A stretch of DNA of 60,697 bases, the filler included. It is 3 parts of 3 records of this genome, joined end to end, with 100 filler letters (N's around TTAATTAATTAA, not from the genome) between each part and the next. Parts side by side here need not be neighbours in the genome. Positions count along the whole stretch, not along the records: positions 1 to 20,058 come from SRR20825006_1120; 2 more parts are not named here. The stretch is one strand, 5' to 3'. The notes under the pieces were generated by a model, which was not told the DNA's origin, ran no database searches, and saw only the letters and a program-made list of their open reading frames with translations. A program made the translations under genes and the position numbers. Positions 1-7,127 of this stretch are shown piece by piece. Each line of letters starts with the position of its first letter. Within the stretch, counting starts at the first letter, position 1.

Positions 1-80
1 CCGAAAGTCTTGACGACTTCCGCTACGAATGGCGAGCGATCCACAGCAAAAGCCCTTTGGCCTCCTTCGAATCCAGCCCC

Positions 81-926
81 ATGCCCGAGCCCTCCTGTCG
101 ATCTGTCGCGATCATCGGGTTGGGATTGTTGGGTGGGAGTGTGGCGTTGTCGATTCGCAGACGTTGGCCGTCCGTCCGACTGACCGCCTGCGCCCGATCG
201 CCTGAAACGCGGGCGTTGGCTTTGGATCGCGCGATTGTGGACGAAGTTTTCGACCGCCCCGAGGCCGCCGCGAACGGCTGTGATCTGGCCGTCATCGCAA
301 CGCCGGTGAACCGAATTGCGTCCCTGGCTCAGGAACTTGCGGGGCAATTCCCCGAGCTGACCCTGACCGACGTTGGCAGCACCAAGGGGGGGCTGGTTCG
401 CGAATTAGCGGGGACGACAGCGGCGAAACAGTTCGTTCCGGCTCATCCGATCGCGGGCAGCGAAAAAAGCGGGGCGGAGCACGCACGGGCGGACCTTTTC
501 GACGACAAACCCATCGTGATCACGCCCAGTGGCGAAGAAATGCCGCAGCACATCACCGCCGCGACCGAATTTTGGCGAGCCACCGGCGGACGAATTGTCA
601 CGATGCCGGCCGAACAGCACGATGCCACCTTGGCATTGACGTCTCATTTGCCACACTTGCTGTCGTCGCTCGCCGCCCGCCAAATCACTCGCGAAATGCT
701 CGCTTTGGTTGGCACCGGCTGGCTCGACACCACTCGCGTGGCGGCGGGGGATGCGGACCTTTGGACCGCCATCGTTTCCGAGAACCGCGACGCGATCCTG
801 AGTGCGATCGAACAATCCCGGTCGGACTTGGACACACTGCAAACCATCGTGGACCAGGGCGACGACATTGCCCTGCGAACCTGGCTCGACACCGCCAAAC
901 AAATTCGACAATCCGCTCAAACCTGA
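81..926 (+). CDS. tyrA: prephenate/arogenate dehydrogenase
   Basis: Rossmann motif IIGLGLLGGS, TDVGSTK, HPIAGSEKSG, SHLPHL and DTTRVA. ATG at 81 preferred over TTG at 57. Confidence 0.9.
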   Translation: MPEPSCRSVAIIGLGLLGGSVALSIRRRWPSVRLTACARSPETRALALDRAIVDEVFDRPEAAANGCDLAVIATPVNRIASLAQELAGQFPELTLTDVGSTKGGLVRELAGTTAAKQFVPAHPIAGSEKSGAEHARADLFDDKPIVITPSGEEMPQHITAATEFWRATGGRIVTMPAEQHDATLALTSHLPHLLSSLAARQITREMLALVGTGWLDTTRVAAGDADLWTAIVSENRDAILSAIEQSRSDLDTLQTIVDQGDDIALRTWLDTAKQIRQSAQT

Positions 927-995
927 CCGCGACCGCCCGTGGCCAAGGTTGCCTGATCTTCTCCCGTCTCCATCCTCATTCCCCGATCTCGCACC

Positions 996-3900
996 ATGCC
1001 GCTTTGGCAAATCGACATTCATCCTGCTCCCGGTCAAATCGATCGACTCGGCGAACAAACGGCTCGTGAAATTCATGAACTCGGATTGGGCGACGACCTG
1101 CTGATCGCCGCTGCACGGGGATACTTGATCCAAGCCGACATCGACGAAGCTTCCGCCAACGAAATTGCGTCGACGTTGCTGGCCGATTCCATCACGGAAT
1201 CGGTCGTCGTCGGGCATCCTGGCAAAGACGCTTCGCTGGTCGAAGCCGACCTGTCCGAGGCCCCCGAATCGTTGATGGAATTGCTGGCCGAGCGTGGCAT
1301 CGAATCCGAACCGCACCTGGTGCACGTGATGCCCAAACCCGGTGTGATGGATCCGGTCGCCGCCAGTACCCAAGGCGCGCTCGCCGATCGGGGTGTTGAA
1401 GGCAGCACAGTCAAAACGTTCCGCAAATTCTGGATCGCGGGCACCGACGAAGCCCAACTGGAAACGATCTGCCGCCGTGCCCTGTCAAACGATTCCATCG
1501 AAGCCTTTGTGATCGGGCCGTTGACGATGGATCGATTGGATGTCGGCTCGGCGGGCGAATTTGAATTGGTGCACGTGCCGATTCGCGAACTCGATGACGC
1601 CGGATTGGAAAAACTTTCCAAGGAAGGCCAGCTGTATCTGACGCTGGTCGAGATGCAAACGATCCGCGATCACTTCGTCGAACTGGGACGTGACCCAACC
1701 GACATCGAATTGGAATCGGTCGCCCAAACTTGGTCGGAACACTGCAGCCACAAAACACTGGCTGGCCGGATTCACTACAAGGGTCCTGGTGCGGATGGCA
1801 CACCCGGCGGCGACGAACGCCAGTACAACAACATGCTCAAAGAAACGATCTTTGAAGCAACCCAAACCATTCGTCGCTCCCTGGGCGATGACGATTGGTG
1901 CGTCAGCGTGTTCAAAGACAACGCGGGCATCGTGACCTTCGACGAACAAGACCACGTGTGCTTCAAAGTCGAAACGCACAATCACCCGTCGGCGCTCGAA
2001 CCCTACGGCGGTGCCAACACGGGAATCGGTGGCGTGATCCGGGACCCGATGGGCACCGGCATGGGAGCCAAACCCGTCTGCAATACCGACGTGTTCTGCT
2101 TCGCCCCACCGGACGTTTCACCTGAAGAACTGCCACCGGGCGTGCTGCACCCCCGCCGAGTCATCCAAGGCGTCGTGTCCGGCGTGCGTGACTACGGCAA
2201 CCGAATGGGAATCCCCACAGTCAACGGTGCGGTCTACTTTGACGAACGTTATCTCGGCAACCCGCTGGTTTACTGCGGCAACGTTGGCATCATTCCTGTC
2301 GGCATGGAAGACAAGGAAGTCAAACCCAACGACTTGATCGTCGCGGTTGGCGGACGCACCGGACGAGACGGGATCCATGGGGCAACGTTCAGCAGTGCGG
2401 AACTGACCAGCGAATCTGAATCGCTGTCCGGCGGTGCCGTCCAAATCGGCAACGCGATCACCGAAAAGATGGTGCTCGACGTGCTGATGCAAGCTCGCGA
2501 TCGCGGGCTGTACAACGCGGTCACGGACTGCGGTGCAGGCGGCTTCAGCAGCGCGGTTGGCGAAATGGGCGAAGAGCTCGGTGCCGAAGTTTGGCTGGAC
2601 AAAGCCCCATTGAAATACGATGGCCTGACTTACACCGAGATCTGGATCTCCGAAGCTCAAGAACGCATGGTCTTGGCCGTTCCCCAAGAACGTTGGGACG
2701 AACTGCGTGAACTGTGCGAAAGCGAAGGCGTCGAGGCCGCCGCGATCGGCCGCTTCGTTCCCACTGGTCGACTGCAGTTGAACTTCCATGGCCAAACGGT
2801 CGGCGACGTCGCCATGTCGTTCTTGCACGACGGACGTCCGCCCGTGATTCGCGACGCGATCTACGAACCACCCAAAGCGAAACCATTGTCAATCGGCGAC
2901 CGCGATGCTGCGGCCAACTCCGAAACCCTGCTCAAGATCCTGGGCAGCTACAACGTCGCCAGCAAGCACTGGGTGATCCGCCAATACGATCACGAAGTCC
3001 AAGCGGGCAGCGTCGTCAAACCCTTGGTCGGCCCACAATGCGATGGCCCCGGCGACGCCGCTGTCGTGCGTCCCAAACTGAACAGCCGTCGTGGGTTGGT
3101 GATCAGTTGCGGCATGAACCCGCACTACGGCGACTTCGACACGTATCACATGGCCGCTTCGGCGATCGACGAAGCCATGCGGAACGCAGTCGCGGTCGGT
3201 GCTGATCCTTCCAAGATCGCCATCCTCGACAACTTCTGCTGGGGATACACCGATCGAGCCGAAACGCTGGGGTCGCTCGTCCGGGCCGCGATCGCTTGCC
3301 AAGACCTCGCGGTCACTTTGGGCACGCCGTTCGTCAGCGGCAAAGACAGCCTGAACAACGAGTTCAGCTACTTCGACGACAAGAACGAAAAGGAAACCAT
3401 CGCGATTCCGCCCAGCCTGCTGATCAGTGCGATGGGCCAAATCGACGATGTCAGCAAATCAATCACGATGGACGCGAAGGAAGCCGGCAACGTGATCTTC
3501 CTGGTTGGCGAAACGCATCGCGAACTCGGCGGCTCGCACTACGGCTTGGTCGAAAACGAACCCGGCGGTGCGGTCCCTGAGGTCGACGCAAAGTTGGCGA
3601 AGAAAACGTTTGCGACCGTCCACCAAGCGATCCAGTCACGACTGGTCCGCTCGTGCCACGACCTGTGCGAAGGCGGCCTGGCGGTCGCTGCGGTCGAAAT
3701 GGCTTTGGCCGGCGGATTGGGCATGAACCTCGACCTCGCAACCGTTTCTCGCGAGCAACCCTCCAACGATGGCGTGCTCACCGCAGCCGCATTGTCAGCC
3801 ACGGAAGTTCTATTCAGCGAATCAAACACTCGATTCCTGATGGAATGTGCCCCCGAATCAGCCGAAGCTCTGTCCAAGATTTTCGCGGACTCCGGGATCA

Positions 3901-4025
3901 GCCTGACTCGTTTGGGCGAGGTCACCGATTCGGGCCAATTCACAGTCCGCGACGGTGACGCCGTGGTGCTGGAAACCGACATCGCGACCGCAAAATCGGC
4001 CTGGCAAGCCCCTCTGGATTGGTGA
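996..4025 (+). CDS. purL: phosphoribosylformylglycinamidine synthase PurL with two N-terminal PurS-like domains and no glutaminase domain
   Basis: [41 protein letters not shown] and VSGKDS motifs. The N-terminus has two PurS-like segments (e.g. [10 protein letters not shown]...LSNDSIE). Confidence 0.95.
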
Positions 4026-4075
4026 TTTAGAACCAATTTGGAAGCAAACTTCCTCAGAAGCTTGCTAAATTCGCA

Positions 4076-4648
4076 TTGAACCGCGAGCTGGTTTATTCTG
4101 TAATTGCTACAGAATGCATCAGCTTGGCGAAAAATCGCCGACAAAAACGAACAACTTCAACCATTTGGCACCGCGTGGAACTCTGGGTCCGTCGAATCGC
4201 TTTGATCGCATATGTGGTCGGTGGCTGGCTTTTGCCGGCTGCCCACCATCATGTGGCGACGTGCGATTCCACCCATTCCCATGCTGGCATTCACGACGAT
4301 TGCTCTCATACGCATTCGCCTGAAAATGTCGCCGGTTGTTGCTCGCACTCGAGCTCCGCGGACGCGGTCCAGCATGCACCGCTACCGCCAGGTGGCTCGG
4401 AAGAATTGCTGGTCTGGGAAACGAGCCTGCCGTCCGCAGAGATCGTTTCGAATGACCAGCATTCTCATCAATGCGGTGACCTCTGTGCGTTGTGCAACGC
4501 TCGCACGATGGCTGATACCCCGATCGCGGCCTCCGTCCAACGCGAAATGGCTCGCTGCACGGCGAGTCACCGGATCGAATCGACGACCCTTGAAGACTCG
4601 GCAGATTGCTGGCGTCCGTACACACGCGGCCCACCTTCTTTGACCTGA
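4076..4648 (+). CDS. His/Cys-rich DUF2946-like protein with CxxC and C-terminal RGPP (putative ribosome-arrest leader); true start uncertain
   Basis: Hydrophobic segment RRIALIAYVVGGWLLPAA, then a His/Cys-rich region, CALC (4484-4495) and RGPP (4625-4636) three residues before the stop. Confidence 0.7.
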   Translation: MNRELVYSVIATECISLAKNRRQKRTTSTIWHRVELWVRRIALIAYVVGGWLLPAAHHHVATCDSTHSHAGIHDDCSHTHSPENVAGCCSHSSSADAVQHAPLPPGGSEELLVWETSLPSAEIVSNDQHSHQCGDLCALCNARTMADTPIAASVQREMARCTASHRIESTTLEDSADCWRPYTRGPPSLT

Positions 4649-4749
4649 AAACTGCCGTTTTGGCTTGCGGTGAAAACCAGTTTCACTGTAACGCAAACTC
4701 ACTGTCTTCCATCGAGAGCCAATGCGCTCTCATTTTCAGGTCTCATTCC

Positions 4750-5763
4750 ATGTCACACATTTCCTGCCCAGCGGCGCGTGCCCACGCAAATCCAAGCAAC
4801 CGATCGACTTCTGGAGCTTCCCTTCGCAAGGCTTTCACACTCGTTGAACTGTTGGTCGTGATCGCCATCATTGGCGTTCTTGTTGGCCTGCTGCTGCCAG
4901 CCGTCCAGGCCGCCCGCGAGGCCGCCCGCCGGATGTCGTGCCAAAACAACCTGCATCAAATGGGCATCGCCCTGCACAACTACCACGGCATCTTCAATCA
5001 GTTGCCCAGCGGTTGGTTGGCCGACGACATCGATCACCACGAACCCGGCTGGGGCTGGGCCGCCGCGATCACGCCGCAAATTGAAAGCGGAAACATCTAC
5101 GACACCATTCAATTCGGAATGGCCATTGAAGAAGACGAGAACCAACAAGCACGTGAATCATCGATCCCAAGCTACATGTGCCCCAGCGATCCGCTAGAGA
5201 CACTGTTCTTCATCGCCGAAGCTCACGGGGATGGTCATGGGCACGAACATGACCACTCAGCAGCGTTGGATGACGACGACGACGATGATCACGACGACGA
5301 ACACGAGAGCGGGCACAACGTCGACGACGGCGACGAGTTCTTGTTCAAAATCGCCAAAAGCAACTACGCCGGCGTGTTCGGAACGTTTGACATCCACGAC
5401 GACATGTATCACGGCGACGGTTTGTTCTACGGCAACAGCCGCCACCGTTTCCGAGACGTGCTGGATGGACTGAGCCAGACCGTGATGGTCGGTGAACGCA
5501 ACAGTCGTTTGGGTGGCTCGATTTGGCAAGGGCTGATCCCCGAAGCCAATGCCGCCGCGTCTCGCATCGTTGGTGCAGCCGATCACACTCCGAACAGTGA
5601 TGCCGGCCACTTTGAAGACTTCAGCAGCTATCACGCCGCCGGTGCACAATTCGTCCTGAGTGATGGATCGGTGCGAATGCTGTCGCAGTTCATTGACTTG
5701 AAGGTCTACCACGCCTTGGTGACCCGTGCCAATTACGAAGTCATCGAAGCCGACTCCTTCTGA
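4750..5763 (+). CDS. DUF1559 family prepilin-type N-terminal cleavage/methylation protein with His/Asp-rich insertion
   Basis: AFTLVELLVVIAIIGVLVGLLLPAVQAAREAARRMSCQNNL, YMCPSD, DGLSQTVMVGE and the H-X9-DG motif (HAAGAQFVLSDG). ATG at 4750. Confidence 0.92.
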   Translation: MSHISCPAARAHANPSNRSTSGASLRKAFTLVELLVVIAIIGVLVGLLLPAVQAAREAARRMSCQNNLHQMGIALHNYHGIFNQLPSGWLADDIDHHEPGWGWAAAITPQIESGNIYDTIQFGMAIEEDENQQARESSIPSYMCPSDPLETLFFIAEAHGDGHGHEHDHSAALDDDDDDDHDDEHESGHNVDDGDEFLFKIAKSNYAGVFGTFDIHDDMYHGDGLFYGNSRHRFRDVLDGLSQTVMVGERNSRLGGSIWQGLIPEANAAASRIVGAADHTPNSDAGHFEDFSSYHAAGAQFVLSDGSVRMLSQFIDLKVYHALVTRANYEVIEADSF

Positions 5764-6939
5764 TCAGGCCGCCGACTTCCGGGCTGCTTGGGTTGGCGCT
5801 AGCCATCCTCGCATGCCATCCAGATCCGCCGACCAGGCTTCACTGGTTCGGCGGTCACAGAATGTATGGAACAACCCGTCGATCGTGTCGCTGAGCGTTC
5901 GCACCGCTTCGATGCGATCTTCGGGACCGAAGTCGTCGTCATCTTCATCCAAATGGATGCGAGCGCCACTGATCCCGAACGTCTCCGCTTGCAGAGTCAG
6001 GTCAAATTGCTGGCCTTCGCGAATCAACGTCATACCTGTCTTGCGAGGCAACTTGCCACTTTGGATCGCACGCATGGCCTCGGGCAATTTGACAGGGCAC
6101 TCCGCGGAAATGGACTCTTTGCCTGACTCTCCGATGGGACATTCCAGCGAAAGCGTCTTGGCCAGCATCAGCGTGACTTCGGTTCCGTCGAACGTCTCAA
6201 TCGTGTCGGTTTCCGTTTCCAGCATCCACCACAGCCACAGCAAAAACTCGTTGCCAAGGAAGTCTGGTGACTGGGAATGCTCGTTCGCCCATGCGACACC
6301 GCTGAACCCTTCACCGGTGACGAAACTGGCGGGCATCACATCATCCATTTCGGCATAGCGATCGTTTTCGCGAGCCCAATCCTGCGCGACGACACCCGCA
6401 CTGATGTGCCCGCATTCGATTCCGAACACACGTTCGAGCAGATCGACGCAGTGACCACTGCCGGTGCCTGCGGTTCCGCCGTAATAAAGCAGATCGCGAC
6501 TGCAGTCCCACAACAAAGCGTGCTGTTGAAACTTGCGGTACTTGCCCGTTGCGGCTTCATTTTCACAGCGTTGCTCGACCGCTTCCTTGGCTTCTTTGCG
6601 TTGCGACTTCGTCGGTTTCCCGCCCGGATTTTCACGGCTCAATGCCGCGAGCTCCATCGACAACCAAGCCTTCTTGATCACCGAAGGCACTTGGTTGGTG
6701 TCGACGCGAACACCAAAGTGCACAGCATCATCGATGATGTTTTTCGCCAGATCAAAATCTTGATCGAAAAGGTGATCGCCGCCCAGAAAACCCAAATGCA
6801 CGTTTTCTTCGTTGGCGGTTTCCGTTCGCCCGGCCACGTTCTCTGCCATCCGCTCGATGTGTTCTTGCCCAAATGGGCCGTCTTCAAATTGATTGACGCG
6901 AAATCGTTCAAAAGAAAGGCTACCGGAGAGAAACGGCAT
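5764..6939 (-). CDS. RdgC-like recombination-associated protein (divergent)
   Basis: N-terminal MPFLSGSLSFERFRV, RVDTNQVP, KSQRKEAKEAV and a C-terminal half with DFLGNEFLLWLWW resemble RdgC-family proteins. Recognition only. Confidence 0.55.
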   Translation of the reverse strand: MPFLSGSLSFERFRVNQFEDGPFGQEHIERMAENVAGRTETANEENVHLGFLGGDHLFDQDFDLAKNIIDDAVHFGVRVDTNQVPSVIKKAWLSMELAALSRENPGGKPTKSQRKEAKEAVEQRCENEAATGKYRKFQQHALLWDCSRDLLYYGGTAGTGSGHCVDLLERVFGIECGHISAGVVAQDWARENDRYAEMDDVMPASFVTGEGFSGVAWANEHSQSPDFLGNEFLLWLWWMLETETDTIETFDGTEVTLMLAKTLSLECPIGESGKESISAECPVKLPEAMRAIQSGKLPRKTGMTLIREGQQFDLTLQAETFGISGARIHLDEDDDDFGPEDRIEAVRTLSDTIDGLFHTFCDRRTSEAWSADLDGMRGWLAPTQAARKSAA

Positions 6940-7127
6940 GAATGAGAATCCCAATCAATCGATGAGCGGAAGAAACCAGCCACTCCGTGTCGGCTGTGTC
7001 GTTGGCTTATCGTCCAACCTCAGCCTAGAAATTGCCGCGCTATCGCCAGACCATCGCAACACCGCAACCTGCCCAGCCGGAATAACCGGCCGGCGACGAC
7101 CACTCACGAGACCGGCTTTTCCGCCGA

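Follow-up and report, generated by a model that had tools for sequence, protein, structure and literature searches.

What does a small open reading frame that ends in RGPP do directly upstream of a DUF1559 gene, and does it control that gene? The question is raised by a stretch of DNA of 60,697 nt, here called the window, whose positions 1–20,058 come from SRR20825006_1120 and in which such a frame and a DUF1559 gene follow one another on the plus strand, the former ending at position 4648 and the latter at 5763. DUF1559 genes are among the largest Planctomycetes-specific gene families and have no known function; the whole genome of Rhodopirellula baltica holds 74 of them (PMC2754498). An original prediction, made from the letters of the window alone, read the frame as a metal-sensing ribosome-arrest leader of the CruR/CutF type that controls a His-rich pilin-like gene. 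This reading is partly supported. Conservation of the motifs, a spacer of fixed length between them, a helix masking the ribosome-binding site in most loci, and synteny with ZIP transporter genes speak for it, whereas a search with the DUF2946 hidden Markov model (HMM) and the generality of a His-rich cargo do not. Taken together, it is moderately probable that positions 4175–4648 encode a cis-acting, metal-responsive regulatory leader of the CruR/CutF type.

An RGPP-ended leader family in the Pirellulaceae

When the whole 60.7-kb window is scanned for open reading frames (ORFs) of at least 50 codons, counted stop to stop, that carry R[AG]PP or RAGP within their last 14 residues, exactly one such ORF is found; the window also holds exactly one DUF1559-type gene, and the two adjoin. 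The open frame runs from 4076 to 4648 on the plus strand and encodes 190 aa if counted from TTG 4076, the start used in the original prediction. The start of the leader is most likely GTG 4175 instead, a shift of 99 nt, because a start codon lies about nine residues before the LIAY..GGW block in 23 of 23 loci and the homologues begin there; positions 4076–4174 thus probably fall outside the coding region. The remainder of the predicted anatomy was recovered where it had been placed: CALC and RGPP with 43 codons between them, a three-residue tail, a hydrophobic N-terminal segment (residues 8–23), a body rich in His and Cys (13 His and 9 Cys among 157 conserved residues), and, across a gap of 101 nt, a co-oriented DUF1559 gene whose product is rich in His and Asp (its 337 aa include 22 His, 32 Asp, and 19 Glu). 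The coordinates of all parts are collected in Table 1.

A word-indexed search returned nine relatives of the leader, and an exhaustive phmmer search of 1.84 billion representatives gave 37 matches at E <= 1e-3, including one spurious match and two fragments. A profile search raised the number to 53 matches, all of them unnamed or labelled 'hypothetical' and none with a precomputed Pfam domain. The spurious phmmer match (P0011; 1469 aa, 10 matched stretches) was dropped from the family as an unrelated repetitive protein. A scan of one genome per species located the leader at 23 genome loci, all of Pirellulaceae type, in Rhodopirellula, Novipirellula, Rubripirellula, Aporhodopirellula, Neorhodopirellula, and metagenome-assembled genomes (MAGs). 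The leader itself has no match to any Pfam or NCBIfam family, and its profile finds no match in the PDB at E <= 1.

The alignment of 50 leader members has a mean column identity of 21%, and within it the columns L10, Y13, G16, G17, W18, P21, H24, H26, C56, C104, R151, G152, and P153 are invariant, the first six of these being the invariant part of the hydrophobic N-terminal segment; at least 90% of members also share A12, H34, C107, and P154. Conservation of CxxC and RGPP among homologues had been set beforehand as a refuting test, and both motifs proved to be conserved, with RGP in 50 of 50 members, the second Pro in at least 90%, and a correctly spaced CxxC in 49 of 50. The complete RGPP occurs in 49 members and is replaced by RGPA in one. 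It is followed by three residues in 41 of these 49, by two in five, by four in two, and by seven in one. Counted over the database proteins P0001–P0038, RGPP is present in 35 of 38, with the three-residue tail in 32 of those 35; the proteins without it are a C-terminally truncated fragment, the spurious match, and the RGPA protein. At the level of genomes, RGPP plus two or three terminal residues closes the leader in 22 of 23 loci, the exception being the apparently frameshifted L020. In Planctomycetota proteomes, RGPP occurs at a mean of about 0.15 of its expected frequency (PMC12992588, supplementary file 1). All four RGPP codons vary synonymously over 22 loci and the window, Arg being written with five codons, Gly with four, and each Pro with four, and selection at this site therefore acts on the peptide and not on the RNA.

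The distance between the two motifs is equally constrained. CxxC and RGP are separated by 43 residues in 21 members, by 44 in 27, and by 45 in one (49 of 50 members), so that the linker behaves as a ruler of fixed length and poorly conserved sequence. The distance from GGW to CxxC, by comparison, ranges from 61 to 115 residues, and several other leaders exceed 150 aa, with lengths of up to 187 aa. The N-terminal hydrophobic block is conserved throughout the family with one or two Arg ahead of it in the alignment, and is likely an N-in/C-out signal anchor or a signal peptide. The PA-x-HHH that follows is, on inspection, unlike an AxA cleavage site, and the anchor is probably uncleaved.

These patterns bear directly on whether the frame is a gene at all. 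It begins with a codon other than ATG, no family annotation covers it, and R. baltica SH28 annotates just an 80-aa fragment of it (RBSH_04259, P0010), as would be expected of a chance frame or of the shadow of the antisense ORF at 4119–4634. The intact frame is kept in 22 of 23 loci, however, and the invariant residues at a mean column identity of 21%, together with the synonymous variation of their codons, make such an origin extremely improbable and effectively refute it. The antisense ORF (171 aa, minus strand), which overlaps the leader, is itself most likely a shadow frame, because the conservation pattern sits on the plus strand.

Table 1. Features of the leader–DUF1559 locus, in positions of the window.
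Feature	Position	Strand	Description	Basis
In-frame 5' extension as first listed	4076..4174	+	Probably untranslated leader RNA	Aligns with closest relative only
Leader gene	4175..4648	+	157 aa, from a GTG start to a TGA stop at 4646-4648; candidate metal-sensing arrest peptide	Alignment of 50 family members
N-terminal hydrophobic segment	4196..4243	+	Residues 8-23, preceded by Arg-Arg	Best-conserved family block; AlphaFold2 helix at residues 2-19
HHH	4244..4252	+	Straight after the hydrophobic segment; H24 and H26 invariant	Alignment
Cys56	4340..4342	+	Second Cys of a CC pair, invariant; candidate additional metal ligand	Alignment column
CALC (CxxC motif)	4484..4495	+	C104 invariant, C107 at least 90%	Sequence and alignment
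Linker ('ruler')	4496..4624	+	43 codons; length fixed, sequence poorly conserved	Family spacing counts
RGPP	4625..4636	+	Predicted arrest core	R, G, and P invariant in 50/50 members
Tail SLT and stop codon	4637..4648	+	Three residues plus stop	Sequence
5' helix arm	4642..4651	+	GACCUGAAAA; spans the leader stop codon	Minimum free energy and centroid folds
Leader–DUF1559 intergenic region	4649..4749	+	101 nt	Gene coordinates
3' helix arm	4733..4742	+	UUUUCAGGUC; 8-17 nt before the DUF1559 ATG, at the expected ribosome-binding site position	Folding
DUF1559 gene	4750..5763	+	337 aa, prepilin-type N-terminus and DUF1559 domain; short type I subtype	PF07596, E 9.9e-71
Prepilin-type hydrophobic N-terminal helix	4834..4908	+	FTLVELL...	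Domain matches
His/Asp/Glu-rich insert	5218..5337	+	40 residues: 8 His, 14 Asp, 5 Glu	Sequence count
H-X9-DG motif	5632..5667	+	DUF1559 C-terminal region	TIGR04294 match

A gene with conserved His and Cys residues could also encode a stable product, namely a small membrane metalloprotein or metallochaperone that acts with the DUF1559 protein under ordinary operon coupling and uses RGPP for some other purpose. Its 157 aa are long for a leader, the strict pairing of the two genes fits a two-protein complex just as well, and a terminating ribosome could open the helix described below without any arrest. RGPP, on the other hand, is strongly avoided in proteomes and yet invariant here, where 48 of 49 members carry it at a fixed 2–4 residues before the C-terminus, and a linker that is conserved in length and not in sequence is hard to explain for a folded protein. 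AlphaFold2 finds no fold for the leader either: the mean pLDDT is 60.2, the only helices are at residues 2–19 and 105–114, the latter short, and no globular fold is predicted, which fits the role of a nascent-chain sensor. CutF could not be detected in vivo and acts only in cis (PMC9973294). A stable metalloprotein is accordingly judged rather unlikely.

A disruption of the leader was seen at L020, where CxxC and RGPP are missing after an apparent frameshift, and one of the same kind occurs in P0033. These disruptions and that of L017 probably reflect assembly or sequencing errors, the other possibility being that they mark pseudogenes.

A helix between the leader end and the DUF1559 start

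The 3' end of the leader pairs with the region in front of the DUF1559 start. In the window, a 10-bp helix joins 4642–4651 to 4733–4742 in both the minimum free energy and the centroid folds of 4600–4790 (z-score -2.12), and the main downstream partner of the leader 3' end is the segment at -18 to -4 relative to the DUF1559 start. Taking a pair-probability sum per nucleotide of at least 0.3 as pairing, the start region (-20 to +3) pairs with the leader 3' end in 15 of 22 loci, and shuffling the start region 40 times gave, for 13 of the 18 loci tested, no more than one sequence with pairing at least as strong as that observed. In half of the loci (11 of 22) the main partner of the leader 3' end falls within -23 to -2 of the start, over intergenic lengths of 36–242 nt. 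The helix arms of L001 are identical to those of the window, and the same helix architecture recurs in other loci with different sequences. If a ribosome stalled at RGPP is simulated by keeping the nucleotides that it covers unpaired, the unpaired probability of the -20 to +3 region rises from 0.40 to 0.64 in the window, and the mean for the start region across loci rises from 0.44 to 0.55.

Signals for other modes of control were also sought. Scanned for patterns, the intergenic region gave neither a terminator-like nor a sigma-70-like site, and 3900–5900 gave no sigma-70-like promoter, the scan being one that does not extend to planctomycete promoters. The C/G ratio of the intergenic regions ranges from 0.79 to 2.80, with pooled frequencies of 0.27 for C and 0.23 for G; Rho dependence is neither supported nor excluded, since a consistent C-rich and G-poor signature of the rut type is missing.

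Gene neighbourhood and a probable link to metals

A gene for a ZIP transporter (PF02535, E 1e-30 to 1e-35) lies directly upstream of the leader and in the same orientation in 7 of 23 loci (L008, L009, L012, L013, L021, L022, and L023). It is found at about 2300–3900 in each of these loci and is separated from the leader by 135–417 nt. The outer neighbours at L008 differ from those of the other six loci, which suggests that the ZIP gene, the leader, and the DUF1559 gene travel as one block. This synteny is the best independent evidence that the leader–DUF1559 pair takes part in metal homeostasis. As the metal concerned, it favours zinc or another divalent transition metal over copper in particular.

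The same neighbourhoods allow a second reading of the conserved Cys residues to be weighed, in which the leader is a redox sensor: disulfides formed outside the cytoplasm would release the arrest, and the DUF1559 gene would be set by periplasmic oxidative-folding capacity. Three Cys (C56, C104, and C107) are conserved, uORFs (upstream ORFs) of the RAPP/RGPP class with conserved Cys pairs precede genes for DsbA and thioredoxin (PMC12992588), and disulfides are invoked in the model for CutF (bioRxiv 10.1101/2025.02.05.636593). Disulfide chemistry would leave the invariant H24 and H26 and the near-invariant H34 superfluous, however, and a gene for a thiol oxidoreductase beside the pair was found in none of the 22 loci scanned (L002–L023), while the ZIP synteny favours a metal. 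A redox sensor is therefore considered improbable, and the leader is taken below as a candidate metal sensor.

The unit comprises only the leader and the DUF1559 gene, because the next gene is convergent. This is an ORF of 396 aa at 5764–6954 on the minus strand, the stop of which abuts the DUF1559 stop and which matches no Pfam or NCBIfam family at E <= 1; L001 carries an ORF of equal length and position. Upstream of the pair, positions 996–4025 of the window (plus strand) hold a purL-like gene for an FGAM synthase of 1009 aa with AIRS, AIRS_C, and FGAR-AT linker domains. Its product also has a PurS domain at residues 109–172 and appears to be a PurS–PurL fusion.

Comparison with characterized arrest peptides

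Among the closest counterparts of the leader is the DUF2946 protein CruR (Bp2923), encoded by an upstream ORF of Bordetella pertussis that controls the TonB-dependent transporter BfrG (PMC9426467). The DUF2946/CruR proteins are defined by CXXC and RAPP, more than 95% of members have an export signal, and the gene comes first in its operon (PMC9426467). Both CruR and the leader have a CXXC and an R-x-P-P motif three residues from the C-terminus, and an export signal is likely in the leader too. The distance from CXXC to this motif is 45 residues in CruR and 43–45 in the leader family, a sizeable intergenic region follows in both cases, and the leader, like CruR, is the first gene of its unit. 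By sequence, the leader family thus appears to reproduce the anatomy of CruR point by point, with RGPP replacing RAPP. Differences remain in that motif, in the cargo, which is a DUF1559 pilin-like protein, in the read-out, which appears to be a helix masking the ribosome-binding site in most leader loci and is Rho-dependent termination in CruR, in the metal, which is probably not copper for the leader family, and in the absence of a DUF2946 match at threshold.

The relationship to DUF2946 can be stated more closely. The family carries the CXXC of DUF2946 proteins and the spacing of 43–45 residues, and has RGPP instead of RAPP at the position known from CruR. Matches to the DUF2946 model below its threshold were obtained for 5 of 50 members and extend over model positions 3–117 of 117 with 14.5–17.9 bits; no other Pfam family recurs more than twice among the 50. 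DUF2946 also made up 14 of 30 look-alikes returned by a language model (best 0.94), as the only named family beside 16 unnamed planctomycete clusters, a result that serves as a lead only. The leader family is DUF2946-like in architecture and probably a remote relative, and it is not filed as a member of Pfam DUF2946. 'A few' DUF2946 proteins have been reported from Planctomycetes, and Table S1 of Roy et al. has a single such entry each for R. baltica SH28 and for Schlesneria (PMC9426467). The SH28 entry could not be mapped to the leader family, and the SH28 fragment P0010 gave no DUF2946 match.

CutF of Rhodobacter capsulatus, the DUF2946-like leader of cutFOG, offers a precedent for the RNA part, in that a stem-loop masks the cargo's ribosome-binding site and is melted by the stalled ribosome (PMC9973294; bioRxiv 10.1101/2025.02.05.636593). 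The putative likeness extends to a co-translationally exported, Cys-containing sensor with a proline-based arrest motif at its C-terminus, followed by a stem-loop over the ribosome-binding site. CutF differs in having CXXXC and PPP, with an arrest that is sensitive to EF-P, whereas the leader has CxxC and RGPP, the latter being EF-P-refractory in published tests. CutF is also shorter than 150 aa, has a cleavable signal peptide, and serves a multicopper oxidase, while the leader probably keeps an uncleaved anchor. Under the rules for CutF-like leaders given in the Methods of PMC9973294 (<=150 aa, PP in the last 15 residues, a same-strand gene within 1000 nt), the downstream gene is present in 23 of 23 loci and PP in 22 of 23, and the leader at 157 aa exceeds the length. 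The three small supplements of that paper contain no DUF1559 or planctomycete entries, its neighbour table (File S1) standing outside them.

Arrest at RGPP itself has been characterized by Fujiwara et al. (EMBO J 2025, PMC12992588), in whose Escherichia coli and Bacillus subtilis reporters RGPP caused the most robust arrest and was refractory to EF-P. Although depleted from proteomes, RAPP and RGPP are enriched in small membrane or secretory proteins, close to the C-terminus (PMC12992588). By sequence, the leader fits this description, as it has fewer than 300 aa, is of membrane/secretory type, carries its motif near the C-terminus, and has a co-oriented gene downstream. In the source data of Fig. 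4B of the same paper, DUF1559 is one of the 30 leading gene classes that follow RAPP uORFs, and 112 RAPP against 68 AAPP uORFs precede it (6.46-fold, adjusted p 1e-31). Among the rows listed there, planctomycete RAPP uORFs before DUF1559 are rich in His and Cys and have a CxxC, and two are annotated as DUF2946; in four rows of the uORF list, CxxC and RAPP were counted to be 43 residues apart. These DUF1559-linked uORFs carry RAPP in the rows listed, and were not among the peptides assayed in that work, whereas the family of the window carries RGPP.

Arrest peptides of the SecM, MifM, and ApdP type suggest a further explanation, a secretion or insertion monitor in which pulling force from Sec or YidC frees the RGPP arrest and DUF1559 expression follows insertion or pilin-handling capacity. 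It was upstream of genes for Sec and YidC that C-terminal RAPP/RGPP peptides were initially discovered, and force releases their arrest (PMC12992588). The leader carries a membrane segment at its N-terminus, and its cargo is itself a Sec-inserted protein of the prepilin type. SecM of E. coli likewise places RAGP a few residues before its stop codon, has an export signal, and lets the stalled ribosome open a helix that shields the next start (bioRxiv 10.1101/2025.02.05.636593), yet it senses translocation force and not a ligand, serves SecA, and is without the conserved set of Cys and His. A gene for localisation machinery was not found downstream of the leader in any locus; all 23 have DUF1559 there, which is no Sec or YidC component. 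A force monitor would also leave no purpose for the invariant His and Cys residues or for the fixed distance from CxxC to RGPP, which together are the hallmark of CruR (PMC9426467), and a role with metals is suggested by the ZIP genes that accompany the pair in 7 of 23 loci. Such a monitor is thus an unlikely account of the family, and a metal-responsive leader of the CruR/CutF type remains the preferred reading.

Nascent-chain leaders are not new in principle, CruR, CutF, and RAPP/RGPP peptides of Streptomyces being known examples. The original prediction was aware of no description of the pairing of such a leader with DUF1559. It is in fact listed in the Fig. 4B source data of PMC12992588, although DUF1559 is not mentioned in the main text of that paper, and the Fig. 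4A list of RGPP uORFs may already contain the leader family. Apart from these source data, DUF1559 is named in only four papers of the literature searched, and in none of them in the context of an arrest leader. New here are the RGPP family that Pfam does not recognize, the strictness of its ruler, a start-shielding helix that recurs among the loci, the two cargo subtypes, and the ZIP synteny.

The DUF1559 cargo

A co-oriented DUF1559 gene lies 3' of the leader in 23 of 23 loci, a count that includes two loci where the contig ends inside the gene and two MAG loci with a frameshift. In the latter two, the DUF1559 gene is split (L017, 4312–5376; L020, 3956–4966). The DUF1559 protein of the window (4750–5763) also matches N_methyl (PF07963, E 5e-06), the prepilin model TIGR02532, and TIGR04294, which describes the H-X9-DG motif. 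A sequence search of the PDB matched its pilin N-terminal helix only, and the AlphaFold2 model, built from a 17-sequence alignment, has a mean pLDDT of 38.4, too poor for a fold comparison.

The cargo falls into two subtypes. Type I is short, at about 330 aa, carries the His/acidic insert, and is found in the window, L001, L004, and L019; the frameshifted DUF1559 gene of L017 probably belongs to it. Type II is longer, at 400–440 aa, is not His-rich, and occupies all remaining loci. The expectation that CxxC/RGPP leaders would recur before His-rich DUF1559 genes was thus borne out for DUF1559 (23 of 23 loci) and failed for the His-rich character (5 of 23). A 'His-rich cargo' is true of the window and is not general, because the type II proteins of the remaining loci are not His-rich. 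Type II proteins (e.g., L007, 4669–5895) have a conserved G-D-V-H-H-x-N-V-W after H-X9-DG, at alignment columns of about 430–445, which the window subtype does not have. At L004, in a MAG, a cluster resembling a type II secretion system (T2SS) directly precedes the leader–DUF1559 pair (52–3822, plus strand) and consists of a fragment of T2SS protein F, a prepilin-type protein, and a second DUF1559 gene without the His-rich insert.

A model for metal-responsive arrest

In the proposed mechanism, the short N-terminus and the hydrophobic segment would deliver the growing chain to the membrane in such a way that its part rich in His and Cys comes to lie outside the cytoplasm. The ribosome would then arrest at RGPP with Pro153 (4631–4633) in the P site and Pro154 (4634–4636) in the A site, a placement drawn from published work on RGPP and CruR; in toeprints of CruR, these two sites hold the third and the fourth motif codon (PMC12992588). 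During such an arrest, CxxC would be 43–44 residues from the peptidyl-transferase centre, just past the exit tunnel, and could come to lie beside the upstream ligands H24, H26, H34, and C56. Binding of a metal, or its absence, would change the force on the chain and with it the duration of the arrest.

On the free mRNA, pairing of 4642–4651 with 4733–4742 would shield the DUF1559 start, while a ribosome held at RGPP would cover or unwind about half of the helix and free the start region, so that the arrest time may set DUF1559 translation. The preferred direction is that of CruR, in which scarcity of the metal leads to arrest and expression and binding of the metal to release; it is preferred because the leader–DUF1559 pair sits behind a gene for a ZIP-type importer in seven loci. 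The cargo would then be a pilin-like protein for metal acquisition or metal binding. The opposite direction, that of CutF, in which the metal prolongs the arrest, is also possible.

Several observations weigh against this model. Plain translational coupling would explain the RNA data without arrest, because a normally terminating ribosome also opens the helix. The helix of the window is modest, in view of the z-score of -2.12 given above and of the one shuffle in 40 that came up to the observed pairing. Consensus folding of five Novipirellula loci recovered the closing helix with no compensatory changes in it, so that the support for the helix is a recurrent architecture with different sequences and not classical covariation; for Aporhodopirellula and Rhodopirellula, consensus folding was uninformative, the intergenic lengths being too different to align. 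Pairing is absent in 7 of 22 loci (L003, L005, L006, L008, L011, L013, and L021), and one mechanism does not fit all loci, given these absences and intergenic regions of up to 461 nt. Moreover, the metal link is indirect: the window has no ZIP neighbour and a purL-like gene upstream instead, the His-rich insert is confined to 5 of 23 loci, and the ZIP loci carry the type II cargo, which is not rich in His. Arrest peptides may also act in a species-specific way, and it is a guess which way the regulation runs and which metal is involved. The search of the leader with the DUF2946 HMM, suggested by the original prediction, likewise failed to place it in that family: the window protein has no match to Pfam DUF2946 (PF11162), nor any Pfam match even at E <= 10, and all 50 members stay below the gathering score, which is 23.7 bits.

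The loci without pairing have intergenic regions of 226–461 nt in six cases and of 104 nt in L006, and their read-out may be a different one, for instance Rho-dependent termination of the kind seen in CruR. At L013 and L021, an unusually long spacer of 461 nt (4574–5034) separates the leader from DUF1559 without pairing between leader and start, and it may harbour some other feature, such as a further RNA element or a small ORF.

Implications for DUF1559 proteins

The value of these findings is tempered by the fact that the principle was established by CruR and CutF and that the association with DUF1559 is visible, without comment, in published source data. A metal-responsive leader in the Pirellulaceae would nevertheless extend the ligand-sensing arrest peptides to a new phylum, a new class of cargo, and probably a new metal. 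With its strict ruler, invariant RGPP, and divergent linkers, the leader family also suits the study of how nascent chains sense ligands outside the cytoplasm.

A bolder and rather doubtful extension is that a subset of DUF1559 proteins are metal-binding, probably zinc-scavenging, receptors anchored as pilins, each under its own nascent-chain metal sensor, and that the planctomycete R(A/G)PP leaders form a phylum-wide regulon. If this is true, such DUF1559 proteins would fill the role played elsewhere by TonB-dependent receptors or by binding proteins of the ZnuA type, and their sensor would join the ruler of CruR (CxxC, 43–44 residues, RGPP) to the read-out of CutF, a helix over the ribosome-binding site. 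For a gene family of this size, a dedicated leader that resembles a metal sensor would be the first concrete handle on what some DUF1559 proteins may do, namely metal acquisition or buffering.

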